A DNA stretch of 64,000 nt from Caldilineales bacterium (GCA_019695115.1 JAIBAP010000007.1:48793-112792); one strand, 5' to 3'; shown: positions 5,202 to 62,485, counted from the first letter of the stretch. Notes: generated by a model from the letters alone, not told the origin. Numbers and translations: made by a program.

Positions 5202-5235
5202 TGGTTAGACCCAGGTGGCTTTGGAAACACTGCCT

Positions 5236-5310
5236 CGAAGGACGAAGGACAAATGACGATGGACGAAGCGGATCGGCTGGAGGGAGGATCCACTGCCATC
5301 CGTCATCCGC
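5236..5310. repeat. Repeated ~70-bp element, copy A (core GACGAAGGACnAAnGACGATGGACGAAG...CTGGnGGnAGGA)
   Basis: Shares a ~55-nt conserved core with 26899..26982. It sits in the 100-nt gap between the ABC ATPase and permease genes. Confidence 0.7.
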
Positions 5311-6229: not shown

Positions 6230-6316
6230 GTGCGTGATGCGTGGGTGCGTGTTCCGTGCGTCGGCGGAGTTCCGTGTTGCGTGGTGCGTGTTCCCTGCGT
6301 CGGCGGGGTTCGCCCC

Positions 6317-7156: not shown

Positions 7157-7252
7157 GATATCCTCGCAGCGAATGCGTCGAGCGTTGTTTGGGCGATTAT
7201 AGCACGTTAGCGTTAAGATGCACGATTGGACACCCGCCCACAAAGAGGTGCA

Positions 7253-8614: not shown

Positions 8615-8637
8615 GCGGGTGGCAGGTGCGGCGCCAT

Positions 8638-8670
8638 AGGTGCGACGCACTTCCAAAGTGCGTCGCACCT
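8638..8670. repeat. MITE/REP-like palindromic element, copy 1 (AGGTGCGACGCAC-ttccaa-AGTGCGTCGCACCT)
   Basis: Perfect 13-14 bp terminal inverted repeats, 3' of the MFS gene. Confidence 0.85.
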
Positions 8671-8789
8671 GATGCTCGTCACGAGCACCCAATTTTGCAC
8701 CGCTCCCCCCCTCGCTGCTGATGGTTCAAGCATCATGATGTGCTATACTGGTGGCAGAGAAGTCAATTGCACCACGGAGATAGACATTG

Positions 8790-12354: not shown

Positions 12355-12606
12355 TTTTCCTGCGCTGTGGCGGGCGCACCCGGCGGCTGCTGGAGCGAGC
12401 CGCATGCGTGGATGGGAGGCCGCTCAGACTTCGGGTTTTTACGGAAAACCCGAAGTCTCATTTGTTCCAGGGTAGCGCACGGGTATCAAAAAATCATCAA
12501 AAATCGCCGGGTGCGGCGCACCTCTTGTCTCCATTTGTGCGAGACTGCGTCGCCCCCAAACGACTCCTGCCCACCAGCCCCTCCCGCTTTGCACGACTAC
12601 CGCGTG

Positions 12607-13820: not shown

Positions 13821-15398
13821 GTGCCTTACAAGGTCTTTTTCGTCGAAGATGAGATCGTGGCCCGCGAAGGCATCCGCGACAACGTGGACTGGAAAGCCCA
13901 CGGCTTTGAGTTCTGTGGAGAAGCCCCCGACGGTGAGATGGCGCTGCCGCTGCTACAGGCGCTCAGACCCGATATCCTGATCACCGACATCCGCATGCCG
14001 TTCATGGATGGCCTGGAACTCAGCCGGATCGTCCGCGAGCGCCTGCCCAAGACCAAGGTCATCATCCTCAGCGGCCACGATGAGTTTGAGTACGCGCAGC
14101 AAGCGATCAAGCTGGGGGTATCGGAATATATGCTCAAACCGGTCTCGGTGCAGGACTTGCACCTGGTGTTGCAAAAGGTGGCAGCAGAACTGGACCGGGA
14201 GCGGATCGAGCAGGTGGCCTTGCAAAGGCTGCGCGAGCAGGCCGAGGAAAGCCGGGCCGCGCTCAAAGAGCGTTTTCTGCTCAGGCTACTCACCGGGGTC
14301 GCCTCTTCCGCCGAGGCCATCGAGAAAAGCGGGATGCTCGGCATCGACCTGATCGCCCGCTGTTACCTTGTCGTCCTGATCAGGATCGAACCTGCGCAAA
14401 GCGCGGAAACGTTCGACTTTCAGCGCTGCCAGCGTGTGCAGCAGATGCTGGCGGGCATGGTCGAGGACAATCCGGATGTCTTCTTGTTGACAAAGGATAT
14501 GGATGAGCTGGTGCTCCTGATGAAGGGGAACTCGGCCGAGAATCTGTATGAAGACAGAGAGCTGCTCATCGCGCGCGCCGGGCCCGAAGCGCGTCGTTAC
14601 GGCTGTGAGTTGATTGTCAGGTCGGGCGCGCCCCAGCAACGGATCACGGATATCCAGCGGTCTTTCGGCGAAGCGACTGATGGCATCCGATCCGCCTCCG
14701 GCTGGCACGGCGGCGCCTTCAGATTCGACAAGTCCGAGCTGCTCAAAGTCGGCAAGTCCGAGATCGAAGACTATCTGCGATCGGGAACAGTGGAGGGTTT
14801 GGATGCCTTGTTCGAAACCGTGGTGCATCCCTTGGGTGAAAATGCGCTCGGGTCGCCCGTCGTCAGGGCCGTCATCTTCACCGACATCGTCATGGCAGCC
14901 GCGAAGTTCGTGGATGAACTCGGCGGAGACGTTGGCGCCATGTTCCCGGAACTGGACAACCTGGAAACCGCTCTGACCAGCATCGGCGCCACAGAGCAGT
15001 TGCGGTCCGGCGCCCGTGACATCTTGAGCCGGGCGCTGGGGTTCAGAGACCGCCAGGTATCCAGCCAATACGCCGGCGTCATCAGGCAGGCGCAAGACTT
15101 TATCTCCCGCCGGTACATGGACCCCGAATTGTCTCTCAACAACGTGGCTGCCCAGGTAAACCTCAGCCCCTCCCATTTCAGCGCCATCTTTAGCCAGGAA
15201 ACCGGCCGTACGTTCAAGGAATACTTGACCGAAACCCGGATCAAAAGGGCCAAGGAAATGCTGCGGATGACGACGATGAAGGTGTTCGAGATCGGTTACC
15301 AGGTCGGATACAGCGACCCGCACTATTTCAGCCATGTTTTCCATAAATACACCGGTCTGACGCCCGTTGAGTTCAGGTTGCAGGCTCAGATAGGGTAG
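13821..15398 (+). CDS. Two-component response regulator, REC + AraC-type HTH (YesN-like)
   Basis: Receiver domain with D..DIRMP and K (FFVEDE...ILITDIRMPFMDG...LKP) and a C-terminal AraC HTH (LSPSHFSAIFSQETGRTFKEYL). GTG start with AGAGGAG 5 nt upstream. Confidence 0.9.
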   Translation: MPYKVFFVEDEIVAREGIRDNVDWKAHGFEFCGEAPDGEMALPLLQALRPDILITDIRMPFMDGLELSRIVRERLPKTKVIILSGHDEFEYAQQAIKLGVSEYMLKPVSVQDLHLVLQKVAAELDRERIEQVALQRLREQAEESRAALKERFLLRLLTGVASSAEAIEKSGMLGIDLIARCYLVVLIRIEPAQSAETFDFQRCQRVQQMLAGMVEDNPDVFLLTKDMDELVLLMKGNSAENLYEDRELLIARAGPEARRYGCELIVRSGAPQQRITDIQRSFGEATDGIRSASGWHGGAFRFDKSELLKVGKSEIEDYLRSGTVEGLDALFETVVHPLGENALGSPVVRAVIFTDIVMAAAKFVDELGGDVGAMFPELDNLETALTSIGATEQLRSGARDILSRALGFRDRQVSSQYAGVIRQAQDFISRRYMDPELSLNNVAAQVNLSPSHFSAIFSQETGRTFKEYLTETRIKRAKEMLRMTTMKVFEIGYQVGYSDPHYFSHVFHKYTGLTPVEFRLQAQIG

Positions 15399-35680: not shown

Positions 35681-37144
35681 CTACCTTCTCTGACCCGGTC
35701 TGCCGCGACCACGGCTGCGACGCCGCCCGCCATCGCTGTGATTCGAGGCCGCAGCCGGGGCTGCAGCGGCCATCGCCGGCGGTTGCGCCACCGGCGCGTG
35801 CAGCAATTGCTGGTAATAGTCGTCCAGCAGCATGGCCATGATGGCCGATTCTTCTTCGTTTTCGGCCAGACTGCGGGCCAGGGGGATGAAGCGCAGGCTG
35901 CGCTCGGCCTGGAGTTTGTCGCGGTCGCGCAAGCGCGCTTCCAGATGGGCGATCAGGCGTTCGGTCACCACCGCTTCGACATCGGCATCGGTGGGAAGGG
36001 GGCGCTCGATCAGGTCGATCTCGTAGCGGCGGGCGATGCGGTCGAGGGCGTTTTTTTCCAGGATGCTGATCAGCGAGATGGCCACGCCTGCCGCCCCGGC
36101 CCGGCCGGTGCGCCCGGCGCGGTGGATGTAGGCTTCGATGTCTTCCGGCGCCTCGTACTGGATGACGTGCGACAGTTCGGGAATGTCCAGCCCGCGGGCG
36201 GCGACATCGGTGGCCACCAGGAAGCGCAGGCTGCCCTGGCGGACGCGGTCGAGCACGCGCTCGCGGTCTTTCTGGGCCAGGTCGGCGCTCAGTTCGTCGG
36301 CGTCGTAGCCGAATCGCTGCAAGACGACGGTGACATAGTGGACATGCTGGCGGGTGTTGCAGAAGATGATGGCCGAGGCGGGATTTTCGACTTCGATGAT
36401 GCGCACCAGGCTGCGGTCTTTGTCCATGGCCGGGGCCAGGTAGTAGACGTGCTCGGTGTCAGTGACATGGACATGGTCGTGGCTGAGCGAGAGGAAGTCG
36501 GGCGCGGTCATGAATTCGGCCGCCGTGCGCATGACGTAGGAGGGGAAGGTGGCCGAGAACATGCAGGTGTGGACGCGGCGGTTGGGCAGGTTGCGCCGGA
36601 CGCGCACCATGTCGGGGTAGAAGCCCATCGACAACATGCGGTCGGCCTCGTCCAGGACCAGGGTGCGCAGGTGTTCGAGTGTGAGTGAACGGCGCAAGAG
36701 GTGGTCGAGGACGCGACCGGGGGTGCCGACGACGATGTGAGCGCCCTGCTGCAGCGCCTGCGTTTGCGGGCCGTAGCCGACGCCGCCGTAGACGGCGACG
36801 GTGCTAAACCCGGCCGGTGCGCACAATGTCTCGGCCTCGCGCCAGACCTGGTAGGCCAGCTCGCGGGTGGGGGTCAGGATCAGCGCCTGGCAGACAGGGC
36901 GGCTGGGGTCCAGCCGCTCGATCAGGGGCAGCAGGTAGGCGCCGGTCTTGCCGCTGCCGGTGCGGGCCTGGATCATCATGTCACGGCCGGCCAGCAGATA
37001 GGGGATGGCCCTGGCCTGAACGGGCATGAGATCAGTCCAGCCGGCGCGGGCGCAGGCGGCGCTCATGGCCGGGGTCAGGTCACCAAAGGCCAGGTCGGGC
37101 AGTGGGTTGTGGGGTTCGGTGGGGATTGGGCTGGGATCGGTCAT
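35681..37144 (-). CDS. DEAD-box ATP-dependent RNA helicase
   Basis: Q-motif, Walker A TGSGKT, DEAD (VLDEADRM), SAT, HRAGRTGRAG and an RG-rich C-terminal tail. Confidence 0.9.
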   Translation of the reverse strand: MTDPSPIPTEPHNPLPDLAFGDLTPAMSAACARAGWTDLMPVQARAIPYLLAGRDMMIQARTGSGKTGAYLLPLIERLDPSRPVCQALILTPTRELAYQVWREAETLCAPAGFSTVAVYGGVGYGPQTQALQQGAHIVVGTPGRVLDHLLRRSLTLEHLRTLVLDEADRMLSMGFYPDMVRVRRNLPNRRVHTCMFSATFPSYVMRTAAEFMTAPDFLSLSHDHVHVTDTEHVYYLAPAMDKDRSLVRIIEVENPASAIIFCNTRQHVHYVTVVLQRFGYDADELSADLAQKDRERVLDRVRQGSLRFLVATDVAARGLDIPELSHVIQYEAPEDIEAYIHRAGRTGRAGAAGVAISLISILEKNALDRIARRYEIDLIERPLPTDADVEAVVTERLIAHLEARLRDRDKLQAERSLRFIPLARSLAENEEESAIMAMLLDDYYQQLLHAPVAQPPAMAAAAPAAASNHSDGGRRRSRGRGRPGQRR

Positions 37145-37162: not shown

Positions 37163-38250
37163 TCACCAGGTCACGTGCCGCACCCGGCCGGGCGGGCTGA
37201 GCGGGATCAGGCGGCCGTCTTCCTCCTGCCGGACGACGTTCACCCACCAGATCAGTTCGGGTGGGCGCTCGCCAGGGGACGGGCGCAGGGCGGGGTCGAG
37301 GCGGGCGCTGCTGTTGCGGGTGAGGATGGTTTCGATGGGTGGGAGGGTGGGGTCGGCATAGGCCAGGTGCACCGCGTACCAGGCGCCTTCGGGCAGCAGG
37401 TCGACTGTCACCCAACGCAGGGTAAGCGCTTGGTCGCCGACGATGATGCTGTGGTCGGGGGGGCTGATCGGGGCCGGGGCCGGATAGACGGGTGTTGGCA
37501 AGGGGGCGGCGCCCTCGGCGTCTTCTCTGGCCAGGCCGACGGGGATGGCGAGGATGGTGCCGGGGATGAGGTCGTTGGCGTCGCCGATGTCGTTGTTGGC
37601 GATGATGTCGCCGATGGCGACGCCGAGCGTCTCGGCGATGCCGGTGAGGGTGTCGCCGGGCTTGACCTGGTAGTTGACGGCGCCCATGACCGGCGTGGGG
37701 GTGGTCGGGCCATTAGCCGGGCCATTAGCCGGGCCGGCGGTTTCAGGCAGGGATGCCGCCGGGGGTGGGATCACCAGCACCATGTTGGGCAGCAACGGTG
37801 GGGGCGTGGTCCAGTTGTTGGCGGCCAGGAGCTGGTCGAGGGTGATGCCGAAGTTGCCGGCGATGCCGAGTAGCGTGTCGCCGCTCACGACGGTGTAGGC
37901 GATGGGGGCCGGGGTGGGGGTGGGGCTGGGGGTGGGGGTGGGGGTGGGGACGGGGGTGAGGGTGGAGGTGGGGGTGGGGGTGAGGGTGGGGGTGGGGGTG
38001 GGGCTGGGCGTCAGGGCCAGGACGCGCTCGGCTGTATCCCACCGCCACCAAAGGGCCAACACGGCCAGGATGCCCAAGACGAGGGCGATGTCGGCAAAGG
38101 GTGGTCGCCAGCGACGACGGGCGGGCGTGACCAGGTCGTAGCCGCACATGAAGCAGTCGGCGGCGCTGTGGCTGACGCGCGCCCCGCAGTTGGGGCAGAT
38201 GCGGGCGGAAGGGGGATGGGAGGACACGGGGGGGAATGCGGAGTGCGGAT
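37163..38250 (-). CDS. Zinc-ribbon/TM/PT-linker/double LysM domain protein
   Basis: N-terminal CPNCG...CFMCGY zinc ribbon, one TM (IALVLGILAVLALWW), a (TPTP)n linker and two LysM motifs (YTVVSGDTLLGIAGNFGITLDQL; YQVKPGDTLTGIAETLGVAIGDII). The start is uncertain (GTG/ATG between 38250 and 38341) because the 5' end runs into heptamer repeats. Confidence 0.65.
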
Positions 38251-38309
38251 TGCGGATTTGGAAATGTGTGTTGCGTGTTTCGTGTTCCGTGGTGCGTGGT
38301 GCGTGAAAA
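38234..38309. repeat. Degenerate heptamer repeats (GANTGCG)x4 and (GTGNNNC)x6
   Basis: gaatgcg gagtgcg gattgcg gatttgg ... gtgttgc gtgtttc gtgttcc gtggtgc gtggtgc gtgaaaa, lying in the 5' region of the LysM gene. Confidence 0.8.
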
Positions 38310-38329
38310 CCGCCGATGTTTTCTCGCAT

Positions 38330-38497
38330 TTCACGCTTCACGTTTCACGCTTCACGTTTCACGTTTCACGCTTCACGTTTCACGCTTCACGCTTCACGTT
38401 TCACGCTTCACGTTTCACGCTTCACGCTTCACGTTTCACGTTTCACGTTTCACGCTTCACGCTTCACGTTTCACGCTTCACGTTTCACGCTTCACGT
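38330..38497. repeat. Heptanucleotide tandem repeat (TTCACGY)x24
   Basis: Perfect 7-bp periodicity with C/T alternation at position 7. Intergenic, between the stop of the GT-C-like gene (38530) and the 5' region of the LysM gene. Confidence 0.95.
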
Positions 38498-38529
38498 ATT
38501 ACGGCCTTCCTGACAAATCAACTCAACAA

Positions 38530-40263
38530 TCAATAAGAGATACGTAATAGGAAATAAGCGATGTAGTCGGAGAAAAGTAGCGTGATCAGCAATAGGAGCG
38601 AAAATAGCGAGATCAGGGCGGCGGCGGTGCGCAGGGGCGTGTTGCCAAAACGGATGCTCACGTCGTGTTCGCCGGCGGGCAGGTCGAGGGTGATGAGGGC
38701 GTCGGGGCCGGCGCTGCGCAGGGCGATCTCTTCGCCGTTGGCCGTCCCCTGCCAGCCAGGATACCAGTAGGTGTAGAACTGGAGGGTGACGGGGGTGCGG
38801 GCGAGGACGCGCACGCGCTCGGAGCCGCCGCCGTGGCGGGTGGGCGTGACTTCGCCCTCGCCGGCGATGATACCCGCAAGGGGCAGGGTTCCGCCAGTCA
38901 GGTAGGCGTCCAGTTTGGGGCTGGCGATGGGCGGTTGGCCGGCAAAGGCGGTGGAGCCGCGCATGTCGGGGAAGGCGACCTCGAAATCGGTGACGGCGGC
39001 GGGGCTTTGGTTGCGGGCGCTGACGGGGGTGTGTTCGGGCCGGAGGGTGGGGTAGGAGGCGAGGACGATGGCCAGGCCGATGGCCAGGGCAGGGGTCGGG
39101 AGCGGGGCGGCTGGGGTCTTGGCGGCCGGCCGCCGGGGGAGGAGGGCGGCCAGGACGGCGGCCGCCGTCAGGGCCAGGAAGAGGTCCGCCATCGCCAGTA
39201 AGCGGAAGGGGAACTGGATAAGGGCGAGGGGCGGGAGGGCGGCCCAGATCGGCTGCGTGACGGCCAACATGCCAAGGATGGCGATGAGGGCGGCGGCCAG
39301 GAAGCCGGCCAGAAGGCCGCGATGGGCGAGGCGGGCCCGCCACAGCAGGAGCAGGGCTGCCAGGCCGAGAATGAACAGCCAAAGCCCGATCTGTTGGCTC
39401 ATACCGTCGTCGGGGCCGGGGAGGGCGTGGCCGAAGCCCCAATCGAGGCTGAGAAGCTGGAAGAGGTAGGGGTACTGTTTGGCGTAGTTGTAGGCGTCGG
39501 GCAGCCACTGCGCCTGGACGATGTAGGGGCTTTCGGCCAGGGCCGGGAGCAGGAAGATGGTGGCCATCCCGCCCGCCAGCAGCCCCGCCAGCAGGACGGC
39601 GAAACTCCGCTGCCAGGGGAAGCGCCCGGTCTGCCGCCGGTGCAGCAGCAGCCAGTAGAGGATCAGGCCGATGAGGAAGGGCGGGAAGATGAGCAGGGTG
39701 ACGCTGTGCGTGAGCAGGGTGAGGCCCAGGCTGAGGCCGGCCAGGGCCAGCCGGCGCCGCCCGCCCCGTTCGATCAGATCCCAGAAGCAATACAGCACCC
39801 AGGGGAAGAGGGCGAAGGCGACGAATTCGGCCAACGCCGCCCGCACGTAGATGTTGACCAGGTGGTACGGGGCGAAGGCGTAGAGCAGCCCGGCCACGAA
39901 GCCAGCGCCCGCTCCCCACAGCCGGCTGGCGAAGCGGTACATGGTGAGGCCAGAAAGGAGGAAGGCCAGACCCCAGGTGAGTTTGACGGCCGCAACGATG
40001 CTCGCGCCCAGGAGGTGAAAGGCTTCGGCGATGTAGAAGGCCAGCGGCGCATAGAAGGTGAAGAGCGGGTAGCCGTAGCCGAGCACGTGGTCGGTCGCCC
40101 AGCGCGGCCAGAAGAAGCCGTCACGGATGCCCTGGTCGAATTCGACCAGCCAGAACAGGCTGTGGGCGGCGTCGTGGGCGCGCAGGAAGTAGCCGGGCGC
40201 CATCAGCGGCGCGCAGCCGATCAAGGTAAGGAAGAGCAGGAGGACGAGAGGGGAGCGGCGCAA
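38530..40263 (-). CDS. Polytopic GT-C-like membrane protein (PTPS-related/YfhO-like family), putative glycosyltransferase
   Basis: ~577 aa with ~11 TM segments in the N-terminal two thirds (FWPRWATDHVLGYGYPLFTFYAPLAFYIAEAF) and a C-terminal extracytoplasmic domain. It is a paralog of the next gene. The start is a TTG at 40263, immediately abutting a heptamer array. Confidence 0.5.
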   Translation of the reverse strand: MRRSPLVLLLFLTLIGCAPLMAPGYFLRAHDAAHSLFWLVEFDQGIRDGFFWPRWATDHVLGYGYPLFTFYAPLAFYIAEAFHLLGASIVAAVKLTWGLAFLLSGLTMYRFASRLWGAGAGFVAGLLYAFAPYHLVNIYVRAALAEFVAFALFPWVLYCFWDLIERGGRRRLALAGLSLGLTLLTHSVTLLIFPPFLIGLILYWLLLHRRQTGRFPWQRSFAVLLAGLLAGGMATIFLLPALAESPYIVQAQWLPDAYNYAKQYPYLFQLLSLDWGFGHALPGPDDGMSQQIGLWLFILGLAALLLLWRARLAHRGLLAGFLAAALIAILGMLAVTQPIWAALPPLALIQFPFRLLAMADLFLALTAAAVLAALLPRRPAAKTPAAPLPTPALAIGLAIVLASYPTLRPEHTPVSARNQSPAAVTDFEVAFPDMRGSTAFAGQPPIASPKLDAYLTGGTLPLAGIIAGEGEVTPTRHGGGSERVRVLARTPVTLQFYTYWYPGWQGTANGEEIALRSAGPDALITLDLPAGEHDVSIRFGNTPLRTAAALISLFSLLLLITLLFSDYIAYFLLRISY

Positions 40264-40271
40264 AGGGAGGG

Positions 40272-40474
40272 GGTGGCAGGTGGCAGGTGGCGGGTGGCAG
40301 GTGGCAGGTGGCAGGTGGCAGGTGGCAGGTGGCGGGTGGCGGGTGGCAGGTGGCAGGTGGCGGGTGGCAGGTGGCGGGTGGCGGGTGGCAGGTGGCAGGT
40401 GGCAGGTGGCGGGTGGCAGGTGGCGGGTGGCAGGTGGCGGGTGGCAGGTGGCAGGTGGCAGGTGGTGGGTGGCA
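40272..40474. repeat. Heptanucleotide tandem repeat (GGTGGCR)x29
   Basis: 203 bp of ggtggca/ggtggcg units immediately (8 nt) upstream of the TTG start of the GT-C-like membrane protein gene at 40263, on the minus strand. Confidence 0.95.
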
Positions 40475-40532
40475 GAGCTTGTCCCTTCGCTCCGTTCAGG
40501 GCAGGCTCTGAGTGAAACGAAGGATGGCAGGT

Positions 40533-40579
40533 GGCTCGTTGGTTGTTGACTGTTGATTGTTGACTGTTGATTGTTGAGT
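40533..40579. repeat. Heptanucleotide tandem repeat (TGTTGAN)x~7
   Basis: ttgttgac tgttgat tgttgac tgttgat tgttgag tgttgac tgtt. The unit ACTGTTG is the reverse complement of cyanobacterial STRR3 (CAACAGT). It lies just 3' of the stop of gene 40596..42353. Confidence 0.9.
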
Positions 40580-40595
40580 GTTGACTGTTTTCCCC

Positions 40596-42353
40596 TTATC
40601 TTCTTCTTTGCCAGAGGAGCAGGGCGATGAGCAGGATGAGGGAGACAAGCGAGAGGATGTCGCTGGCGCGGCGGATGGGTGTGTCTTCAAAGCTGAGACG
40701 GAGGAGATGGTCGCCAGCGGGGACGGGGACAGATAGCAGGCCGTAAGGTGGGCGGGTGTGGGCTGGGGTGAGGGCGAAACGGTCGAGGACGGTGTTCGTG
40801 GCGGGATCGAGGAGGGTGGCCGTCCAGCCGGGGTACCACTGGCGCAGGAAGGGCACCCGCTCGCCCTCGCTTCCGGCATGAACCCAGAGGGTTTCGCTGG
40901 TCACGCTGTGTTCGAGGCTGTTCACGGCCAGGGTTTCGTCCTGGGGCGCCAGGCTATAATCGACCTGGCTTGTGACCGGCGTCCCGGCCATGTGCAGGTC
41001 GGCAATGGGCGACCAGGCCGGGATTTCCTGGGCGGTGATGGTCATGCCGGTCATTTCGTCGGCGCTGCGCTGGAATTCCATCAGCCCGGCCAGGGTGGCG
41101 CCGCCGGGCGGGGGCGGCGCCACCTCGACCTTCAGATAAGCGGCGCTGCCCAGGATGATCAGGCCGGCCAGCAGCAGCGGCGGCAACCAGCCTTCGTTTT
41201 CCTCGCCCAACACGGTGGGGGCCAGGACGGCCAGGGCCAGGGCGGCCAGGGTGAGGTAGCGCCAGGGGAACTGGGCCGATGACACCAGCGGCAGGTGGTC
41301 CCAGGCCCAGGTCGAAACGGCGGTGGTCAGCCAGAGGCTGGCGAGCAACACCGCCAGCCAGAAGCCGATTTCCAGCCGCGAGCGGGCGTCGCGGCGCAGC
41401 CAACGCCACCCGGCCAGCGCAGCCAGGGCGAAGGGAACCAGGCCGAGCTGGTAGCTGAGGGGGTCGTTGGGGCCAGGTTCACTGATGCCGAAACCCCAGC
41501 GCGGGTCGAAAAGTTGGGCGAAGTAGACGAAATGGTCGTGGAAGTCGTAATAGCCCTTGAACCACTGGTCGAGGTTGACGAAACGGGCTTCGAGCAGGGC
41601 CGGGAGGACGAAGAAGGCGGCCAGGGCCAGGCCGAGGCCCATCCCCAGGACTGGAGCGATCAACGCCCGCAGCCCGGTTCGCAGCCGCTTGCCCCGATCC
41701 GGGCTGCGGCGGGCGACGCCGATGACCAGGATGAGGATGTAGCCGGCCAGGACGGGCGTGAAGATGAGGGCGACCAGGTTGGAGCTGAGGTGGACGGCGG
41801 CATAGCCGAGGGCGGCAAGGGCGAGGCTGCGCGGGCAGGGCCGGAGGACGGCGCGGCGGGCGCCCAACAGGGCCAGCGGCAGCAGGGCCAGGGCCAGGCT
41901 TTCGGCCATGGCTGCGCGCACATAGATGTCGACCAGATGGTAGGGCGCATAGACAAAGGCCACGGCCGCCACCAGCGCCGCCCGCTCGCCCCGCCAATCG
42001 CGCACGAAGAACCACATACACCAGGCGCCCACCAGGATGGTGGCGATGAAGGTGGCTTCGACCGCGCCCTCAAGGCTGAGCGGCAACAGGCGATAGAGCA
42101 GCGTCCCCAGAAAGGTGGCGGCGGGGGCGTAGATGTTGAAGAAGGGGTAGCCGTAGCCAAAGGCCCAGTCGGGCGACCAGCGCGGGAAGATCGTGCCTTC
42201 GTTCCAGGTCAGGTTGTATTGCAGGATGAAGTAAACATCGTGCCGGGCGTCGTGCGCACCCCAGAAGTAGCCCGGCCGCAGCAAGGGCGCGAGGGCGAAG
42301 GCGCACAACAGGGTCGTGGCCCAGAAGGAAGGAGAGCGGAGGAAGCGGGGCAC
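40596..42353 (-). CDS. Polytopic GT-C-like membrane protein, paralog (PTPS-related/YfhO-like family)
   Basis: FPRWSPDWAFGYGYPFFNIYAPAATFLGTLLY aligns with the paralog. By alignment the likely start is a GTG at 42353; the track's ATG at 42485 adds an Arg/Pro-rich extension that is absent from the paralog. Confidence 0.5.
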   Translation of the reverse strand: MPRFLRSPSFWATTLLCAFALAPLLRPGYFWGAHDARHDVYFILQYNLTWNEGTIFPRWSPDWAFGYGYPFFNIYAPAATFLGTLLYRLLPLSLEGAVEATFIATILVGAWCMWFFVRDWRGERAALVAAVAFVYAPYHLVDIYVRAAMAESLALALLPLALLGARRAVLRPCPRSLALAALGYAAVHLSSNLVALIFTPVLAGYILILVIGVARRSPDRGKRLRTGLRALIAPVLGMGLGLALAAFFVLPALLEARFVNLDQWFKGYYDFHDHFVYFAQLFDPRWGFGISEPGPNDPLSYQLGLVPFALAALAGWRWLRRDARSRLEIGFWLAVLLASLWLTTAVSTWAWDHLPLVSSAQFPWRYLTLAALALAVLAPTVLGEENEGWLPPLLLAGLIILGSAAYLKVEVAPPPPGGATLAGLMEFQRSADEMTGMTITAQEIPAWSPIADLHMAGTPVTSQVDYSLAPQDETLAVNSLEHSVTSETLWVHAGSEGERVPFLRQWYPGWTATLLDPATNTVLDRFALTPAHTRPPYGLLSVPVPAGDHLLRLSFEDTPIRRASDILSLVSLILLIALLLWQRRR

Positions 42354-42421
42354 GGGAGACAACAGCCCCAGGTCGCGGCCTGGGGCTGGATGAAAGGCAG
42401 GGAAGTGGGCGGGGCGCCGGA

Positions 42422-43720
42422 TCAGGGCGGGGGTTCTTCGATGTAGATTTCGATCCACGGCGCACAGGTGGGGTTGGCCGTGCACTCGCTGGAATAGAAC
42501 TGATACCAGACGTTCGAGCCTTGCTCGCCGCGGAAGAGGAAGCCGTTGTTCTGGTCGGGATGGGCGTACATGTCCTGGATCTGCGAGCTGATGTCCCAGG
42601 TGTAGCTGCGGACCTGCGGCGTCAGTTGGGCTTCGGCGATGATCTGGTCCGAGCGGTCGACGCCGAGGCTGTCGGCGCCGGGTCTAGCCCAGCGAACTGA
42701 CGCCGTGGCGCTGTTCCAGGTGACGGCGGCCTCGTCCCACGGGCGCAACAGGCGATAGAGCCGCGCCCGCGAGGTGCCGCTGTTGTTGGGGTTGTTGCCA
42801 GCCTCCACCAGGTTCATGTGCAGCTTCGCCGCCAGGGGCTTGACGCCCGGCCCCAGAGACGGCGGGACGATCTTCATGGCCAGGTGCCATTGTTTGTCGC
42901 CGCGGATCGAGGCAACCGGAGAGGAGCCGTTGTTCAGGTCTGGCTCCCAGCCGTTCAGGTTGCCTTCGCTGATACCGTTATAGCCATCCACGCCGGGGCG
43001 AGCGATGATCCAGCGGCGAGAGGGGCCAGCGACGAAACGCATCAGGCCCTGGGCAGGCGTGGGCGCGTTATAGGTCTCGCCCTCCCACACCAGATACTGC
43101 AAACCCAGCCCGACATCGCGATCCTGCACGCCCCAGGTGAAGCCGATCTGGGCGTTGGAGAGGAAATCGGAGCCGAATTGGTCGAGTGGGATCGAGGCTT
43201 CGGTCAGCCAGCCATTGGCGCGGCGGATGGTCTGCGACTCGACGCCCAGGGCCAGCCCGCCGCTGTTGGTCGCCAGTCCGTCCGGGCTGAAGGTGAGGCG
43301 GATGTCGCCCAGGCTGAAGATGCCGCTGTTGTCCACATCGAAGGTGAAGGCGGCCATGTCGTCGAAATGCCAGTTGCGCGCGACGCGCACGACATTGTCG
43401 TCGGTGACATCGAAGGCGATGTAGAGTTTGTCGGAATCCCAGACCAGGCTGGCCCAGGCGCTGAGGTCATTGGGCTGCGGGCGTTCGTCGACCGGCGGAA
43501 AGCTGGCGGTGGTGCGGTCGAGCTGGATTTTTTGGTAGCCGCTCCAATCGCTGAGGTTGCCATCGACGACGGGCGGCGTGCGCTGCCAGACGACATCGAA
43601 GCTCCTGGCGGCGGGGTTGGCAGGGGCGGCGCGGAGGGAGGCGGCGGGGCCGATGAGCAAACCACCGAGGGCGAGCAAGATCGGCAGGAGGGAGCGAAAT
43701 CGCAAGGGAAGAAGGGGCAT
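42422..43720 (-). CDS. Secreted protein with CBM9/DOMON-like carbohydrate-binding domain(s)
   Basis: Signal peptide MPLLPLRFRSLLPILLALGGLLIGPAASLRA, with an ATG at 43718-43720. The VVDGNLSDWSG...LYIAFDVTDD pattern matches the CBM9-like family. Confidence 0.5.
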   Translation of the reverse strand: MPLLPLRFRSLLPILLALGGLLIGPAASLRAAPANPAARSFDVVWQRTPPVVDGNLSDWSGYQKIQLDRTTASFPPVDERPQPNDLSAWASLVWDSDKLYIAFDVTDDNVVRVARNWHFDDMAAFTFDVDNSGIFSLGDIRLTFSPDGLATNSGGLALGVESQTIRRANGWLTEASIPLDQFGSDFLSNAQIGFTWGVQDRDVGLGLQYLVWEGETYNAPTPAQGLMRFVAGPSRRWIIARPGVDGYNGISEGNLNGWEPDLNNGSSPVASIRGDKQWHLAMKIVPPSLGPGVKPLAAKLHMNLVEAGNNPNNSGTSRARLYRLLRPWDEAAVTWNSATASVRWARPGADSLGVDRSDQIIAEAQLTPQVRSYTWDISSQIQDMYAHPDQNNGFLFRGEQGSNVWYQFYSSECTANPTCAPWIEIYIEEPPP

Positions 43721-43827: not shown

Positions 43828-44295
43828 TCATTCGGCCACAGCCGAGGCCAGCCCCCCGCCCAAGGCCCCCATCATCCCCCCCACCAGCCAGATCACGCCG
43901 CACAAAAGCACCGAGAAGAACAGACTGCCGCCCACCGTATCCAGCCGCATCAAGTCCATGCCGGCGTTGGCAAAGGCCTCGAGCACGCCCTGCGGCAGCA
44001 GGTGCAGGCTGGTCATGGTGTCGCCGGCCAGGTTGAAGCGCACCGGCGACAAGGCGATGTTGACCAGGCCGTCCACGATCCCGGCCAGGATGCCTGCGCC
44101 CAGGCCCGCCACCGCCGCCCGGTTGCGGAAACCGAGCTGGATGGCCATGCGCCCGGCCAGGAAGCCGCCAATGGCATAGGCAAGCAGCCGCAGCGGCAGA
44201 GCGGCAAAGCCACAGACCGGGATCACCCCCAGCACCGAGAAAGCCACAGCCAGCAGTGCGCCCACCAGCCCCCCGCGCAACAGGCTACGGCTCAC
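43828..44295 (-). CDS. Small integral membrane protein (4 TM), unknown function
   Basis: 155 aa with Gly/Ala-rich hydrophobic helices. GTG start with GGAG upstream. Confidence 0.45.
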   Translation of the reverse strand: MSRSLLRGGLVGALLAVAFSVLGVIPVCGFAALPLRLLAYAIGGFLAGRMAIQLGFRNRAAVAGLGAGILAGIVDGLVNIALSPVRFNLAGDTMTSLHLLPQGVLEAFANAGMDLMRLDTVGGSLFFSVLLCGVIWLVGGMMGALGGGLASAVAE

Positions 44296-44618: not shown

Positions 44619-47177
44619 ATGACGCGCATCATCTCACTCCTGATCGGCTTCGTGCTCGTGGTTGGCATGGCGGTGGCGATGGCGTCCCAGGCGGCCGAGG
44701 AAAGGCCAACGGCAGGGGATGGCGACGATTGGGGGACGGGGAAGGAGCGGTCAGCCTCGTCGAGGCAGACGTTGCTGAACAGCGCCCCCTACCCGCGCAC
44801 CTACATGTTCTACCATAGCAGCCCACCCAATAACTGCGTGACGACGACGGACCGAGACGGCGTCTTGGGTCAGGCGGCCGTGTATGCCAATGTGATCGAG
44901 ACGCTGATGCAATACGGGGCCAACGACCCGGCGCCGGGCTATGAGGGTTGGTCGTCGCTGAAACCGTGGCGCCTGCCGACGAGCGGCAGCACCTGCACGG
45001 ACAGCGACCCCAAGCTGGCGGCGTGGCTGCAAAGCCAGTCGGAGGCGCTGGCGAACGGGACGCAGCGAAACTGTTGGGGCGAGACCGTTCTGCACTCGCA
45101 AATTGCCTTCATCTCGACCTGGAACTACTACGCCGATGCCATTGGCGGTTTTCGCAAGCTGCACCAGGATGCGATGCTGGCCTGCGACGAAGCGGATGGG
45201 ACGTCGGCGGGAGAGACGCTGCCGGTGGAGTATCAGACCAGGCAGACCTGGGCGGTGCACACCACGGGCGCCAACAATGCCGCCACCCGGGGGCTGATAC
45301 CGCGCTGGCGGGAGTATGGCGGGGCCAATGTCCTGGTCGGCGCGCCGGTCAGTCCGGGCGCGGATAACATCTGCTCGACGGCGCCATCGCCGTGGGGGAC
45401 GAATGCGCAGTGGCGCTATGTGGATTGGCTGCCAGCCTGGCTGCACGAGCGGATTGGCGGCATTGCGGCCTGGGATGGGGTGCGGATGGACCTGCCGGGC
45501 AACATTCACTCGTACTGGAGTCCGAAGGACATCGACCAAGATCTGGATGGCTGTCGTGATTATGCGCAGAATGGCGCGCCGGTGACATCGCCTCCATGTC
45601 CAGTTGAAGCAATACCCGCAGGGCGCAAGTATCTGGACGCCATCTATCGCGCTGGCAACGACTACATCTTCGGCAAGATCCATGAGTCAGGCTATCATCC
45701 GGCCTGGCTGATCGGCGGCAACGACGCCTGGATGCCCCAAGATAGCGACAGTAACTACATGCCCGGCTTCGCCGCCTCAGACGAGATCGATTTCACCATC
45801 GCCGAGAACTGGACGGATCGTTGGGAAACCACCTCCGGGGGCGCTCAACTATACTACTTTTCGCAATGGCGAGACCCCAACACTGGCGGTGGCGTCAATG
45901 TGAGCTTTGCTCAAGCAATCAAGATCTGGGATCAGTGGTCGCACCACGGCAACGGCGACAAGTCCTATGTCATCCTCTCCAAATGCATCTTCAACGGTCT
46001 GATCCCACCCGGCTGGACGTGTACACCGACCAACATGTACCGGGAATTTCGCTTCAGCCTGGCTGCGGCTACGATGCTCGACGCCCATCACGGCTTCATC
46101 GGCGCCGCCAACACCCTGCGGCCGGAATGGTTCGACGAATATGCCGTCTATCCCACCAATCAGGCGGCAGACACCCCCACCGAAAAAGCCCTGGGCATCG
46201 GCTGGCTGGGGATGCCGGCCGCCGACATGTACACCCCCAACGCCAGCGGCCAGGTCAGCAGCACCATCTACAGCGCCCTCGCCGCCGCCAACTGGCAGAC
46301 TGTCATCGATAACAGCGTCTGGGTGCGCTACTTCAAGCGTGGGGTGGCGTTGCTCAACCCGACAGGGAGCAGCCGGACGGTGACGCTGCTGCCCGGCGAG
46401 TATTGGCGCATCCAGGGCGTCCAGGATGCCGCCGTCAACAACGGGACTCAGATCAGCGGCAACAGCGTGTCCGTGCCCCCGCACGATGGCCTGCTGCTGG
46501 TCAAAGGCCCGCTGACTTCCTCCTGCTCGACGACGCCGCCTACTGACACACCCACACCCACCCGGACGCCCACCCCGACTCGAACACCCACCCGCACGCC
46601 GACGCCGACGCTCACACCCACGCCCACCCGCACGCCGACGCCCACACCAACACCCACGCCCTCGGCCAACAGCATCGTGCTGGAAGCGGAAAGCGGCGTC
46701 CGCACCAACATGTCGGTGGGCGTCAGCGGCGGTTGCAGTTACATCTACGGCGGCGACTGGCAGACGGGCTGGAGCGATTACACCTTCACGGCTGCCGCCG
46801 GAACCTATCGTCTGCACGGCGTCGTCGCCAACCCGGGCGGCGTGGGGTCGTTCTACTACAAGCTGGATGCACAGGCGGTCAAGCTGTGGTACTACACGCC
46901 TGGCGATGCTAACTGGCATTGGGATACCGATGACGAAACCCTGCCGCTGGCGACGGGCGGCCAGCACACATTGCGCATCTATGGCGGGCGACCCAACAGC
47001 CGGCTGGATGTGATCGAGATCAACCTGGGGGCGACGCCGACATTCAACGGCAGCACGTGCCTGGGCAGCCTGGCGCAAATCTTCAAGCAGCCGCAGCGGG
47101 AGCCGCGTCATCTCGAGGCCGTCCTGGCGCGCCTGCGTCGTTTGTTCGCACCTCTCATGACAAGGAGAAGACTATGA
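44619..47177 (+). CDS. Secreted protein: unknown ~600-aa N-terminal domain, PT linker, C-terminal CBM6/CBM35-like module (putative novel glycoside hydrolase)
   Basis: Signal peptide MTRIISLLIGFVLVVGMAVAMASQA. A (TPTPTRTP)n linker lies at aa ~645-690, and the C-terminal SIVLEAESG...GDWQTGWSDYTF...LDVIEI is typical of CBM6/35-like sugar-binding modules. AGAGG RBS upstream. Confidence 0.6.
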   Translation: MTRIISLLIGFVLVVGMAVAMASQAAEERPTAGDGDDWGTGKERSASSRQTLLNSAPYPRTYMFYHSSPPNNCVTTTDRDGVLGQAAVYANVIETLMQYGANDPAPGYEGWSSLKPWRLPTSGSTCTDSDPKLAAWLQSQSEALANGTQRNCWGETVLHSQIAFISTWNYYADAIGGFRKLHQDAMLACDEADGTSAGETLPVEYQTRQTWAVHTTGANNAATRGLIPRWREYGGANVLVGAPVSPGADNICSTAPSPWGTNAQWRYVDWLPAWLHERIGGIAAWDGVRMDLPGNIHSYWSPKDIDQDLDGCRDYAQNGAPVTSPPCPVEAIPAGRKYLDAIYRAGNDYIFGKIHESGYHPAWLIGGNDAWMPQDSDSNYMPGFAASDEIDFTIAENWTDRWETTSGGAQLYYFSQWRDPNTGGGVNVSFAQAIKIWDQWSHHGNGDKSYVILSKCIFNGLIPPGWTCTPTNMYREFRFSLAAATMLDAHHGFIGAANTLRPEWFDEYAVYPTNQAADTPTEKALGIGWLGMPAADMYTPNASGQVSSTIYSALAAANWQTVIDNSVWVRYFKRGVALLNPTGSSRTVTLLPGEYWRIQGVQDAAVNNGTQISGNSVSVPPHDGLLLVKGPLTSSCSTTPPTDTPTPTRTPTPTRTPTRTPTPTLTPTPTRTPTPTPTPTPSANSIVLEAESGVRTNMSVGVSGGCSYIYGGDWQTGWSDYTFTAAAGTYRLHGVVANPGGVGSFYYKLDAQAVKLWYYTPGDANWHWDTDDETLPLATGGQHTLRIYGGRPNSRLDVIEINLGATPTFNGSTCLGSLAQIFKQPQREPRHLEAVLARLRRLFAPLMTRRRL

Positions 47178-59458: not shown

Positions 59459-61057
59459 TCACGAAGAAACCGTGATCTGCGGGGTAGGCCATGACATCAG
59501 CAACCCTAATGCCTGCAAATTGCCTTGAATCGTGCGATGCTGTTCTTGCATCAGTCTCAGTAATTCATCTGCATCTCTGTCATCGTGTTGGGCTTTGAAG
59601 TGAGGGTTGACAGCCTTCAGATCGTAGTTGTTTTTTTCGATTTGCCCGCGAGTGATGGACCAGCTTCTGTCGCTATCTGCAAGACCTGGCATCAAATTGA
59701 AAAAACCAGCGAAATGTTCAGCAGTTAAAGGTTCTGTCTTACTGATCTTTATATCGGATAGGTCGTAGTACCAAATTTTCTCTGTCAGCTCTCCTTTGAT
59801 GAAAAACAGGATATCTGTCTTGATCGATGCTCCCGCGTTGACAAAAGTTCCTGACGGTAAACTGATAACACACCACAGGTTACACGTATCCAGGAGTTTT
59901 CGCTTTGTTTGTACAAAAGCTGTATCATTGGTTCGAAACAGAATGCCCTCATCGACGACGATTGCGCAGCGTCCTCCCGGAGCAAGGCTATCGATGACAT
60001 GCTGAAGGAAAAGCAACTGGGTAGAACTCGACTTGTAGGCGAATTGCGTTTGCGCCACCTTGCTTTCTTTGCCGCCAAAGGGGGGATTGGTCACGATCAC
60101 ATCGAAGCGCCTCGGTGCGTGTTCGAACAGCCCGCCGTAGATCTCGTTCCCGGTCAGTGTGTTGCCATGCCAAATATGCGGTTCATCGATGCCATGAAGG
60201 ACGAGGTTAGCGAGTGCGATGGGGTAGATCAGGTTTTCCTTCTCACGTCCGTAGAGATGACACGGTTGGATCGCTGAGTCGGGGGGCAGTTCGCCAACGG
60301 AATCTGCTTGTTTCTGCCTCACATGTTCATAGCATTGCACCAGAAAACCACCGGTGCCACAGCAAGGATCATAAATAGACTCGTCCGGTTGCGGATCGAT
60401 GGCCCTGACCATCGCCCGCACAACTTCGCGAGGGGTGAAGAATTGCCCACCGTCGTTGGACTTGTGCCCCATTTTTAATAACAAGCCTTCGTAGACTTGT
60501 GAGAGTGGGAAGATATGCGTTGGATCGATGCTGTCAGCGCGTATCTCCTGAACGCGATTCAGAACCTCGATCAGATTGTATTCGGTATCGATACGCGTCC
60601 GTTCGATATTTGCAGCGATTTCGCCGACGATCTTCTGGCGTGATGTCGCTTGGGGGTGCTGGCCGAGTCCCCTCAGGTATGGAAAAAGTTCATCATTGAC
60701 AAACGCCAGCAGAGAACCTTCACCCTTCGTTTCCAGCTCGCGGCGCTTCCATCCCTGCGGCTTATGGTTGTCTGGGTCGTGAAACAGTGATGGTTCATAG
60801 GGCGCGGCCCAGTCGTGCCAGCGATAGGGCGACTCGATGGAGTAATCAAAGACCCGTCCTGTTGCTTCGACTCTTTCTGCCTCGTTCGTTTCCTGCTCGT
60901 CAAGAATGCGCAAGAACAGGATCCAGGTAAGCTCAGGTATGTACTGCAAGGCGCCGGCGCAGTTCGAGCGTCGCAAAATATCGGTAATTCCTTTGATCGC
61001 TTTGTTCAAAGACTGCTGGGTGGGAAAGACCTTCCCGGATCTTTTAGTTGTCATCAT
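59459..61057 (-). CDS. HsdM-like N6-adenine DNA methyltransferase (gamma class)
   Basis: HsdM_N-like N-terminus, motif I DPCCGTGGFLV and motif IV NPPFGG. The gene lies in a ~47% GC island. Confidence 0.85.
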   Translation of the reverse strand: MMTTKRSGKVFPTQQSLNKAIKGITDILRRSNCAGALQYIPELTWILFLRILDEQETNEAERVEATGRVFDYSIESPYRWHDWAAPYEPSLFHDPDNHKPQGWKRRELETKGEGSLLAFVNDELFPYLRGLGQHPQATSRQKIVGEIAANIERTRIDTEYNLIEVLNRVQEIRADSIDPTHIFPLSQVYEGLLLKMGHKSNDGGQFFTPREVVRAMVRAIDPQPDESIYDPCCGTGGFLVQCYEHVRQKQADSVGELPPDSAIQPCHLYGREKENLIYPIALANLVLHGIDEPHIWHGNTLTGNEIYGGLFEHAPRRFDVIVTNPPFGGKESKVAQTQFAYKSSSTQLLFLQHVIDSLAPGGRCAIVVDEGILFRTNDTAFVQTKRKLLDTCNLWCVISLPSGTFVNAGASIKTDILFFIKGELTEKIWYYDLSDIKISKTEPLTAEHFAGFFNLMPGLADSDRSWSITRGQIEKNNYDLKAVNPHFKAQHDDRDADELLRLMQEQHRTIQGNLQALGLLMSWPTPQITVSS

Positions 61058-61062
61058 GTTGT

Positions 61063-61875
61063 CTATTTGTTCGAAGTTCGCTCTCTGGTGCGATTCGATA
61101 CAGCATCGACGAACTGGAGATACGCCTGAATATAAGCAGATAGTTCAAACAGATCCGTTTTTCGCGACTTATGAACGATCCGCAAGATTTTGCCAGCGTT
61201 ATGGGGATCAGGTGTGAGTTCGCCTGGGTGTTTCTTGCTCGGCACGAAAATGCCGGTTTCGTCTACTCTGCCGCCCCGTAGCGCCACGCTTGTATCACGT
61301 TCTTGGGCCAGCTCTACCGCGGGAATGACAACATACGAGAATATCTCCGGGTATTCGTATGGCGTGCCGTCGGCAAGTGCGTCGTTGCGCCACGCCCATC
61401 CTACCATGACCACCAGGTCTTCTTCGGCGTTGATCAGACTGCTCAGGACCTCGAAGCGCGCCGACTGTTCATCAGAGTCAGCATCGACGGCCTTCATCTC
61501 GATTTGAACTCGTTTTCCCAGTACGGCATCCCGAATGAAGAAATCCGGGTACTCATGGGCTACGGCAAAGGTCAGCCGCAAGTCGAAACCAAACGCCTCC
61601 AGAATCGAGTCATCCATGTATTTGCTGAGCGCATACTCCAGCATGGCGCCAATACGGGTGCGATAAGAGGATAACTGGCGTCTGCCCGTCGGCAATGGCT
61701 CGGTAGCCCGGTCGCGTTTGGCCAGTTGTCGCGGAGCAAAAAGGGAGTTGACCTGGTTGACTGCCTGTGGCATGAGCGCGTTGATGAAGATTGTGATCTC
61801 CTCGATCATGGCTTTCCCATTCGCGATCTTGTTGCCAATACTGAGTATTTCAGGATGAAGATTCATCATCTGCAA
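61063..61875 (-). CDS. Putative PD-(D/E)xK nuclease (candidate restriction endonuclease of the island R-M module)
   Basis: YPDFFIRD...VQIEMKAV fits a PD...ExK catalytic core. It sits between the hsdS-like and hsdM-like genes and overlaps hsdS by ~25 nt. I recognise no other homology. Confidence 0.4.
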   Translation of the reverse strand: MQMMNLHPEILSIGNKIANGKAMIEEITIFINALMPQAVNQVNSLFAPRQLAKRDRATEPLPTGRRQLSSYRTRIGAMLEYALSKYMDDSILEAFGFDLRLTFAVAHEYPDFFIRDAVLGKRVQIEMKAVDADSDEQSARFEVLSSLINAEEDLVVMVGWAWRNDALADGTPYEYPEIFSYVVIPAVELAQERDTSVALRGGRVDETGIFVPSKKHPGELTPDPHNAGKILRIVHKSRKTDLFELSAYIQAYLQFVDAVSNRTRERTSNK

Positions 61876-62485
61876 GTCGATTATCCTTTTCTGTGTCGGT
61901 GATTTTCAGTGGGAAAGGGAATTCTGAGAGAATTTTCTGTTCATAAGCATCAAGAAGATGCAATTGCCTCTGATAAGCAAGACTTGTCTCGATCACCAGA
62001 TTCATCCGGCGCGTCAATTCGTCGGCCAGGTGCTGTTGTTCTTGGATGGAGTCAGGAACAAGGACTTCTTGTGCAAGCACGTGTCGCATATTGGCGCGGG
62101 GCATCCGCGCCCCCGTCCGCTCTTGCATGGCCGCCTGGACGGTCTGTGGTCTTCGCAATATCCAGGCGAGGAAATCCTTTGAAACGCCTGGTCGCGGTAA
62201 GAGCGGCACAAGTTCGGTAGAGCAACGACCCGCGAAGTCAGGAACCGCGACCTTATTCAGATAGGGCCGCAGTTTGCAGTAGAGCACGTGGCGGGCGTCA
62301 AACAGAAATGCTGTCCCATGGCCGTGGTTGGAGGAGGTCAAGCCGTCGTACAGAATTCTGCCTGTAACGCTTTCGATATGCTCCAGACCCAGAAATGGTA
62401 GCTTAGCAGCCACCGGTGAATCCGGCGCTATGACCGTTCGGTTTTCGACGCACAAATCCCCGATGGCCTGCCATCGATATGCCAT
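61850..62485 (-). CDS. Type I R-M specificity subunit HsdS, single target-recognition domain (half-size)
   Basis: The TRD fold pattern (LGDLCVE...LPFLGLEHI...DARHVLYCKLRPYLNKVAV) and the conserved central region VPDSIQEQQHLADEL with a following coiled coil are typical of HsdS. Confidence 0.7.
   Translation of the reverse strand: MAYRWQAIGDLCVENRTVIAPDSPVAAKLPFLGLEHIESVTGRILYDGLTSSNHGHGTAFLFDARHVLYCKLRPYLNKVAVPDFAGRCSTELVPLLPRPGVSKDFLAWILRRPQTVQAAMQERTGARMPRANMRHVLAQEVLVPDSIQEQQHLADELTRRMNLVIETSLAYQRQLHLLDAYEQKILSEFPFPLKITDTEKDNRLADDESSS

Follow-up and report, generated by a model that had tools for sequence, protein, structure and literature searches.

GT-C-fold glycosyltransferases (GTs) add sugars to wall polymers extracellularly, and some may need a second protein that binds the acceptor (PMC8035078). 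In the multi-component systems of Gram-positive bacteria, composed of a GT-A enzyme, a GtrA-type flippase and a GT-C enzyme, the sugar is linked to a lipid inside the cell, flipped, and finally transferred outside by the GT-C component. The YfhO family (YfhO of B. subtilis and S. aureus, Lmo1079 of Listeria, and PgtC2, PgfM1 and PgfM2 of streptococci) likewise comprises GT-C membrane enzymes that are active outside the membrane, using C55-P-sugar donors and either teichoic acids or Ser/Thr-rich protein linkers as acceptors; the S. aureus enzyme may carry an extracellular carbohydrate-binding domain. Streptococcal YfhO-type enzymes glycosylate Ser/Thr-rich disordered regions of membrane proteins, and one of the clusters holds two GT-C paralogs (bioRxiv 10.1101/2024.05.05.592596). 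The PTPS_related family, PF10131, belongs to the GT-C clan CL0111 and is listed as being of unknown function (PMC7801869). Here, we describe a locus in a stretch of 64,000 nucleotides from a Caldilineales bacterium (GCA_019695115.1, JAIBAP010000007.1:48793-112792; hereafter the window, with positions counted from its first letter), in which two tandem PF10131 paralogs and a Zn-ribbon/LysM protein probably form a three-gene module for envelope glycosylation, found repeatedly in Caldilineales and Anaerolineae of the phylum Chloroflexota.

Comparison with these systems reveals both shared and distinct features. With the PF10131/GT-C clan the locus shares the profile match and the GT-C fold, whereas its tandem arrangement and its Zn-ribbon/LysM partner fall outside the family definition. 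The Pgf cluster resembles it in having two GT-C paralogs, the Pgf pair being encoded beside its substrates. Known YfhO systems come from Firmicutes and stand next to a GT-A (CsbB) gene, whereas the pair in the window has neither an adjacent GT-A gene nor a match to PF09586, the YfhO profile. Teichoic acids are not known from Chloroflexota. The general logic of the multi-component systems appears to be the same, but the cluster has no adjacent GT-A or flippase gene and, across the related loci, combines two or three GT-Cs with a LysM protein. A review of those systems speculates on a second protein that binds the acceptor polymer, which matches the idea of a LysM partner (PMC8035078). Members of PMT/GT39, including yeast Pmt1-Pmt2, show a sequence identity of only 11-13%; a Pfam scan detected PMT proper (PF02366) in neither paralog and no MIR domain, the sole soluble domain of the paralog-1 model being a C-terminal beta-sandwich, which is followed by a terminal transmembrane (TM) helix. 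The mycobacterial enzymes AftA, AftD and EmbC/EmbA/EmbB (10-18% identity) are much larger and carry other soluble domains, and no genes of the decaprenyl-phosphoarabinose pathway were seen in the window.

The two membrane proteins are encoded in tandem on the minus strand. Paralog 2 (40596..42353, 585 amino acids (aa)) begins with a GTG at 42353, and paralog 1 (38530..40263, 577 aa) with a TTG that is the first start codon after a stop in its open reading frame (ORF). BLASTP aligns the two end to end over 554 positions with 34% identity (E 1e-56), so that their paralogy, proposed in an earlier reading of the sequence alone (the sequence-only reading), is borne out far beyond chance. Full-length orthologs of either protein measure 560-640 aa, and each window ORF aligns with them from end to end. 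Given these end-to-end alignments, both with each other and with full-length orthologs, the paralogs are not fragments of one disrupted gene, an outcome that had been named among those that would overturn the assignment.

Both paralogs score above the gathering cut-off (26.4 bits) of the PF10131 hidden Markov model (HMM), with 70.6 bits for paralog 1 and 50.4 bits for paralog 2, and in both the match covers the N-terminal ~300-315 positions of the 621-position profile. Of the two families suggested earlier on the basis of the motif, PTPS_related is thus the correct one; YfhO (PF09586), a sister family, finds no match in either paralog at E<=0.1. Weak precomputed PF09586 matches occur only in some homologs of paralog 1, and most homologs carry a precomputed PF10131 domain. 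The family is large, with 7,001 clusters at 50% identity recovered by a profile search at E<=1e-30, but as no characterised member was found in the literature searched, membership in it names no substrate. The PMT_2 profile (PF13231) matches paralog 1 only, at 27.4 bits against a cut-off of 26.1, that is, 1.3 bits above it. A weak match of this kind underlies the name 'glycosyltransferase family 39 protein', under which NCBI lists a protein 100% identical to paralog 1 in a metagenome-assembled genome of Caldilineales.

The conserved residues offer a greater level of detail. The motif (F/W)PRW..D...GYGYP.F..YAP, noted at the outset, is present in both paralogs and lies in the first extracytoplasmic loop (EL1), where H30-D31 comes first, followed by P-R-W-x-x-D58 and G-Y-G-Y-P. 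Across the 51 aligned family members, P53, W55, G62, G64, Y65, P66 and Y71 do not vary, and conservation reaches at least 90% at R54, D58 and P73. H30-D31, located directly after TM1, represents a second element that is invariant in the same set. Conserved acidic (DxD-like) residues in EL1, characteristic of GT-C enzymes, are found here as the invariant D31 and the at least 90% conserved D58. All family-invariant residues are kept in both paralogs and in 25 sampled orthologs of each, and the two aspartates are retained in 25/25 orthologs of either type. Further residues shared by the paralogs are R141/E146, E244 and Q350-F-P-x-R354, and the catalytic-loop residues of paralog 2 are intact (AHDARHD; FPRWSPDWAFGYGYP).

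For paralog 1, AlphaFold2 modelling from the alignment of 51 sequences gave a predicted local distance difference test score (pLDDT) of 92.7 and a predicted template modelling score (pTM) of 0.92. The model displays a helical membrane bundle up to residue ~405, a beta-sandwich at ~405-542 and a terminal TM helix at 543-576, with short helices in the first outside loop and a long loop after ~residue 244. Hydropathy yields 11-12 hydrophobic segments, roughly in line with the ~11 TM helices counted earlier. The large C-terminal extracytoplasmic domain that had been proposed is also recovered, as the modelled beta-sandwich, but the final TM helix behind it had been overlooked. Comparison of the model with known structures identifies a GT-C fold, as had been anticipated, and paralog 1 is, as modelled, an integral membrane protein of the GT-C (class A-like) fold. 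In Foldseek, the top ranks are taken by the wall-arabinan enzymes AftA and AftD; Pmt4/STT3 and yeast Pmt1-Pmt2 (PDB 6p2r) are also among the matches. A sequence search of the PDB with both paralogs returned nothing even at E<=10, leaving the fold comparison as the only informative one. The C-terminal beta-sandwich of the paralogs is predicted to be similar to a carbohydrate-binding module (CBM).

To place the pair among its relatives, we combined a pattern search with tblastn on one genome per species, which yielded 267 relatives, and analysed the best 80 loci (~1.09 Mb in total). All of these belong to Chloroflexota, mostly to Caldilineales and Anaerolineae, and their ORFs were classified by phmmer against the five window proteins. 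In 48 of the 60 loci with enough flank, the gene immediately preceding the paralog-1 ortholog is of the paralog-2 type and has the same orientation, and in 41/58 loci the Zn-ribbon/LysM gene comes directly after the paralog-1 ortholog. Both the pairing and the adjacency of the LysM gene are seen at down to ~42% identity. Hence, the pair is kept across related Chloroflexota loci, a point that the sequence-only reading had marked for checking, and the conserved core consists of paralog 2, paralog 1 and the gene for the Zn-ribbon/TM/LysM/FN3-like protein. Orthologs are 42-71% identical to their own paralog type and 30-36% identical to the other. Their being nearer to their own type indicates that the duplication predates the divergence of these lineages, with both copies kept together; judged from these identities, it is ancient and the copies have been retained side by side.

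A third, weaker GT-C paralog precedes paralog 2 in 24/50 loci (for example L038 6474-8066, L050 40-1641, L072 6562-8127, L001 6637-8142 and L005 1649-3232), and two further genes found upstream of paralog 2, which Pfam does not recognise, are divergent members of the same third type. This paralog has lost D31 (mostly replaced by Ser), H34, the P-R-W..D segment, G-Y-P, E244 and R354, and it still has R141, E146, W275, D286 and W504. The pattern suggests that it is likely a non-catalytic relative, acting as a pseudo-enzyme subunit. No such gene was found in the window, as tblastn with six third-paralog sequences from relatives returned only the two known genes. The position upstream of paralog 2, occupied by the third paralog in many genomes, is taken in the window by a CBM9/DNRLRE gene. 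We considered whether this gene is homologous to those found there elsewhere, and ruled it out, as the latter are divergent third GT-C paralogs.

Natural fusions provide an additional view of how the modules may be combined. The proteins P0254 (1093 aa) and P0255 (1116 aa) each contain two complete PTPS_related modules in one polypeptide, and P0291, P0332, P0339, P0347 and P0372 are listed along with them as fusion proteins. In a second type of fusion, a different membrane domain of ~700 aa with a YHPxW motif precedes a PTPS_related module, and P0257 (3329 aa) has six matched PTPS_related stretches. The single chains with two modules are consistent with modules acting together, to which they lend indirect support.

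The third member of the core is encoded at 37163..38227 on the minus strand. Its LysM assignment, made earlier together with that of the Zn ribbon, is confirmed by 74.3 bits over two stretches (PF01476; cut-off 20.9) and by two modelled beta-alpha-alpha-beta units with pLDDT ~92-96. The ribbon of the window protein stays below the cut-offs of Zn_Ribbon_1 (19.5 against 25) and Zn_ribbon_3 (18.3 against 27), and one ortholog passes the latter with 27.1 against 27. The ribbon cysteines are conserved, with C59 and C62 invariant and C45 and C48 kept in at least 90% of 54 homologs, and the region is modelled at pLDDT ~90. These homologs share a common architecture of CPxCG...CxxCG, a basic stretch, a TM helix, a Pro/Thr linker, LysM, linker, LysM, linker and a conserved domain of ~110 aa, the last being an FN3-like beta-sandwich. 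In the model of the ATG-started version, residues 1-40 are disordered, the TM helix spans 78-105, and the linkers are disordered. A Pro/Thr/Ser-rich stretch directly follows the TM helix in most orthologs and is present somewhere in all of them, the best 30-aa window of the full-length orthologs having a P+T+S fraction of 0.53-0.93.

The start of this protein deserves attention. The mechanical ORF begins at 38341 and an alternative ATG is located at 38329, but most orthologs begin a few residues before the ribbon. In the related locus L007, whose paralog 1 is 89% identical to that of the window and whose gene order is the same, the partner gene lacks the upstream ATG and has a GTG at the position that matches 38227. 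Based on both observations, we take the GTG at 38227 as the likely start. The database call for a near-identical LysM protein, P0121 (328 aa), places the first codon within the Zn ribbon; to judge from the conserved ribbon and the conserved GTG, this start is probably mis-annotated and the protein called too short. A (CCCACC)n hexamer codes for the Thr-Pro linker both in the window (37903-38008) and in L007 (7582-7687), with 17.7 copies in each. The adjacent heptamer arrays outside coding sequence show no such agreement, being entirely different in the window and in L007.

By analogy with GT-C enzymology (PMT, STT3/PglB, ArnT, Aft/Emb and YfhO), both paralogs would take a sugar from a polyprenyl-phosphate donor and pass it, outside the membrane, to an extracytoplasmic acceptor. 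The EL1 aspartate (D31 and/or D58) would participate in catalysis and Arg residues would hold the carrier phosphate, the active site being formed by this aspartate and the conserved arginines. The two enzymes may work together, one after the other or within a heteromer. Their partner would reach from the cytoplasm, where its Zn ribbon resides, via the TM helix and the Pro/Thr linkers into the peptidoglycan, bound there by two LysM units, and would thereby act as a wall-bound associate of the enzymes.

The remaining genes of the neighborhood behave differently. The ORFs that had been described are all present on the minus strand, and the order of transcription is a 155-aa membrane protein, the CBM9-like protein, paralog 2, paralog 1, the Zn-ribbon/LysM protein and a helicase. 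The CBM9-like protein (42422..43720, ATG at 43720; the mechanical ORF extends back to 43903) is a two-domain protein matching CBM9_1 (44.3 bits, cut-off 23.4), CBM96 (26.0 against 26.0) and the NCBIfam DNRLRE_dom (63.1 bits, cut-off 34). Together with its signal-peptide-like N-terminus (MPLLPLRFRSLLPILLALGGLLIG), these matches corroborate the description of a secreted CBM9-like protein upstream of the pair, with carbohydrate binding being a prediction only. The DEAD-box RNA helicase (35681..37144, minus strand) was also correctly named, as it matches DEAD (159.8 bits, cut-off 26) and Helicase_C (108.5 bits, cut-off 23.5), but its gene falls outside the 37163-43720 interval in which the sequence-only reading had included it. 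It remains below the NCBIfam equivalog cut-offs of its two best matches there, CshA (373 against 646) and DbpA (369 against 524). The 155-aa predicted membrane protein (43828..44295, minus strand) has no significant Pfam or NCBIfam match; we considered it as a GtrA-type flippase, for which it is a candidate by size only, and discarded the idea, there being no HMM support and conservation in L007 only. Among the 80 loci, a homolog of the CBM9/DNRLRE gene at this position, a homolog of the 155-aa protein and a helicase beside the LysM gene are each found only in L007, unrelated genes lying beside the LysM gene elsewhere. Because the three accompany the pair in this locus alone, they are lineage-specific neighbours and no part of the core.

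Four heptamer arrays, identified with Tandem Repeats Finder, are located in the two junctions flanking paralog 1. Upstream of it lie (CAACART)x7 at 40538..40589, just past the paralog-2 stop codon, and (CCACCYG)x29 at 40272..40475, which stops 9 nt short of the paralog-1 start codon. The junction from the end of paralog 1 to the start of the LysM gene contains (GTGAARC)x24 at 38330..38496 and the shorter (GCAACAC)x5 at 38268-38305; the units of the first three are read on the minus strand. Given the LysM-gene start at 38227, all four are outside coding sequence. The corresponding junctions of L007 have a 24-mer repeated 4.2 times together with a short different heptamer (5215-5445) on one side of paralog 1 and a spacer of ~50 nt without an array before the LysM gene, which makes these junctions hypervariable among close relatives. 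Of the 80 related loci, 33 contain heptamer arrays whose units are unrelated (for example L062 9583-9766 and L068 10654-10741), among them 26 copies of GTGAACG immediately preceding the paralog-1 ortholog of L062. By a rough, informal count, arrays in the other loci fall at the junctions flanking paralog 1 about as often as would be expected from chance placement among intergenic regions. In one Anaerolineae genome (L006/L045, 7478-8020), an IS200-like (Y1 transposase) ORF of 180 aa sits between the paralog-2 and paralog-1 orthologs, accompanied by several short heptamer arrays. The CAACAGT unit, which also occurs in L007 at 13840-13871, is that of the cyanobacterial STRR3 repeat. Intergenic heptamer repeats are reportedly known from cyanobacteria and Beggiatoaceae, and the arrays of Caldilineales and Anaerolineae look analogous. 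From these comparisons, we regard the arrays as an intergenic feature that is widespread in these bacteria and changes rapidly, and not as a device specific to the cluster; we rejected the idea of a cluster-specific switch upon comparison with L007 and the 80 loci.

Several explanations of the cluster can be weighed against each other. The sequence-only reading had combined all five genes, with the heptamers as switches, into a single assembly-and-anchoring module with repeat-driven variation. The genes do lie on one strand with short gaps (68 nt from the CBM9 gene to paralog 2, 18 nt from the LysM gene to the helicase), and no terminator-like site was found in the cluster junctions upon scanning the minus strand. 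The three longest heptamer arrays of the window sit within the cluster, and the gene order is repeated in L007. However, the CBM9 protein and the helicase are missing from their positions in 79/80 related loci, where the pair and the LysM gene form the conserved unit. The helicase, moreover, is of a generic DEAD-box type. The arrays, being intergenic, are unable to shift a reading frame, and the 33 loci with unrelated heptamers as well as the different or absent arrays in the 89%-identical L007 speak against the proposed variation. Synteny thus largely refutes this explanation, which we consider improbable. Even less credible is that the ORFs are remnants or pseudogenes of one gene, which the alignments refute, or membrane scaffolds devoid of enzymatic activity. 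The residue losses of the third paralog in many related clusters do indicate that non-catalytic relatives exist in the family; yet this degenerate paralog is absent from the window, and both window paralogs align over their entire length and keep every invariant residue.

A role of the pair in glycoconjugate or polysaccharide assembly, as originally suggested, is the natural inference, while the 'anchoring' role of the module is something we can only infer. We lean, with a confidence somewhat short of even, toward the partner placing the enzymes at the peptidoglycan, where they would make or decorate a glycopolymer associated with the wall. This picture is consistent with the CBM-like sandwich, the AftA/AftD matches and the separate acceptor-binding proteins discussed for other systems (PMC8035078). 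Nearly as likely, and possible rather than probable, is that the partner's own Thr-Pro linkers are the acceptor, the GT-Cs O-glycosylating Thr/Ser in these linkers and probably in other envelope proteins with such linkers, in parallel with actinobacterial PMT and the streptococcal YfhO-family enzymes PgtC2, PgfM1 and PgfM2. All partner orthologs have a Pro/Thr/Ser-rich stretch, of a kind modelled as disordered, paralog 1 has its PMT_2 match and 'GT family 39' label, the Pmt4/STT3 fold matches and the streptococcal precedent point the same way, and yeast Pmt1-Pmt2 is a heterodimer of paralogs. The linkers themselves are nevertheless weak evidence, since other secreted proteins nearby carry Pro/Thr linkers as well, such as the 852-aa ORF at 44619-47177. 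PMT proper is unmatched, wall-arabinan enzymes lead the Foldseek ranking, the enzymes bear a CBM-like sandwich, and the conserved cytoplasmic Zn ribbon and the FN3-like domain suggest that the partner is more than a substrate. A more elaborate version, in our view rather unlikely, would be a heteromeric GT-C machine of two catalytic subunits, joined in many genomes by a dead third paralog, that O-glycosylates the Thr-Pro linkers of the Zn-ribbon/LysM/FN3 tether and other envelope proteins.

Returning to the envelope-glycosylation module as such, four points weigh against it. The GT-C fold of paralog 2 is assigned through its homology to the modelled paralog 1, and adjacency of the LysM gene was not detected in 17/58 loci at the thresholds used. 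Full-text literature searches returned no PF10131 member with demonstrated activity, the sole relevant paper giving the function as unknown. Finally, no GT-A (glycosyltransferase family 2) or GtrA flippase was present in the 27 ORFs scanned across the 64 kb, where further ORFs of at least 240 aa at 47-64 kb were inspected by eye and ORFs below 230 aa elsewhere were left unscanned. A phosphoribosyltransferase gene upstream of three of the loci was examined as a link to a donor pathway and dismissed as local synteny, as it is conserved in five closely related loci only and absent from the window.

Several further features of the window were observed. On the minus strand, the only sigma-70-like sites found are at 44569-44542 and 44371-44343, and the first gene after them is the 155-aa ORF. 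The divergently transcribed 852-aa ORF (44619-47177, plus strand) has a signal-peptide-like N-terminus, a large domain without a Pfam match, a long (TPTPTR)n linker for which a hexamer-type repeat codes (46547-46661), and finally a domain of ~150 aa at the C-terminus. Its NCBIfam matches are weak and compositional only, and it may act on glycans or belong to the envelope in a way so far unrecognised. The scan of other ORFs identified sugar ABC transporters, GH3, GH8, a two-component system, an RCC1-repeat protein and a YhfC protease; inspection by eye suggested a LacI-type regulator, CTP synthase, RpoD, DnaG and a type I restriction-modification (R-M) methylase. The methylase-like ORF and its neighbours (59459-62485) coincide with a G+C content of 0.525 at 60-62 kb, compared with ~0.62-0.70 nearby, and this stretch may be a horizontally acquired island. 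The 924-aa RCC1-repeat protein (9631-12405, minus strand) displays 10-11 repeats, with 437 bits for the RCC1-like domain; such an architecture is unusual in bacteria. Pfam recognises nothing in the large ORFs at 286-3351, 5201-6565 and 7189-8721.

Full-text literature searches did not turn up any description of the cluster or of a function for PF10131. The conserved GT-C pair with a LysM partner, along with the degenerate third paralog in relatives, is modestly new; as the general mechanism is already of a known kind, the value of the finding is incremental and not surprising. For annotation, it corrects the loose labels 'GT family 39' and '6-pyruvoyl-tetrahydropterin synthase-related', points out a probably mis-called start that strips the Zn ribbon from the LysM protein, and cautions against reading the CBM9 protein, the helicase and the repeats as parts of the system. 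The envelopes of filamentous Chloroflexota, including Caldilineae, are multilayered and of unknown composition (PMC13319060). The trio of two GT-Cs, predicted to be active, and a membrane-anchored partner that binds peptidoglycan offers a testable entry into envelope glycosylation in these organisms. Should the less likely heteromeric O-glycosylation machine prove true, it would represent the first system for protein O-glycosylation to be defined in the phylum as well as the first function assigned to PF10131. It could then explain, in part, the multilayered envelope of filamentous Chloroflexota, which is poorly understood.

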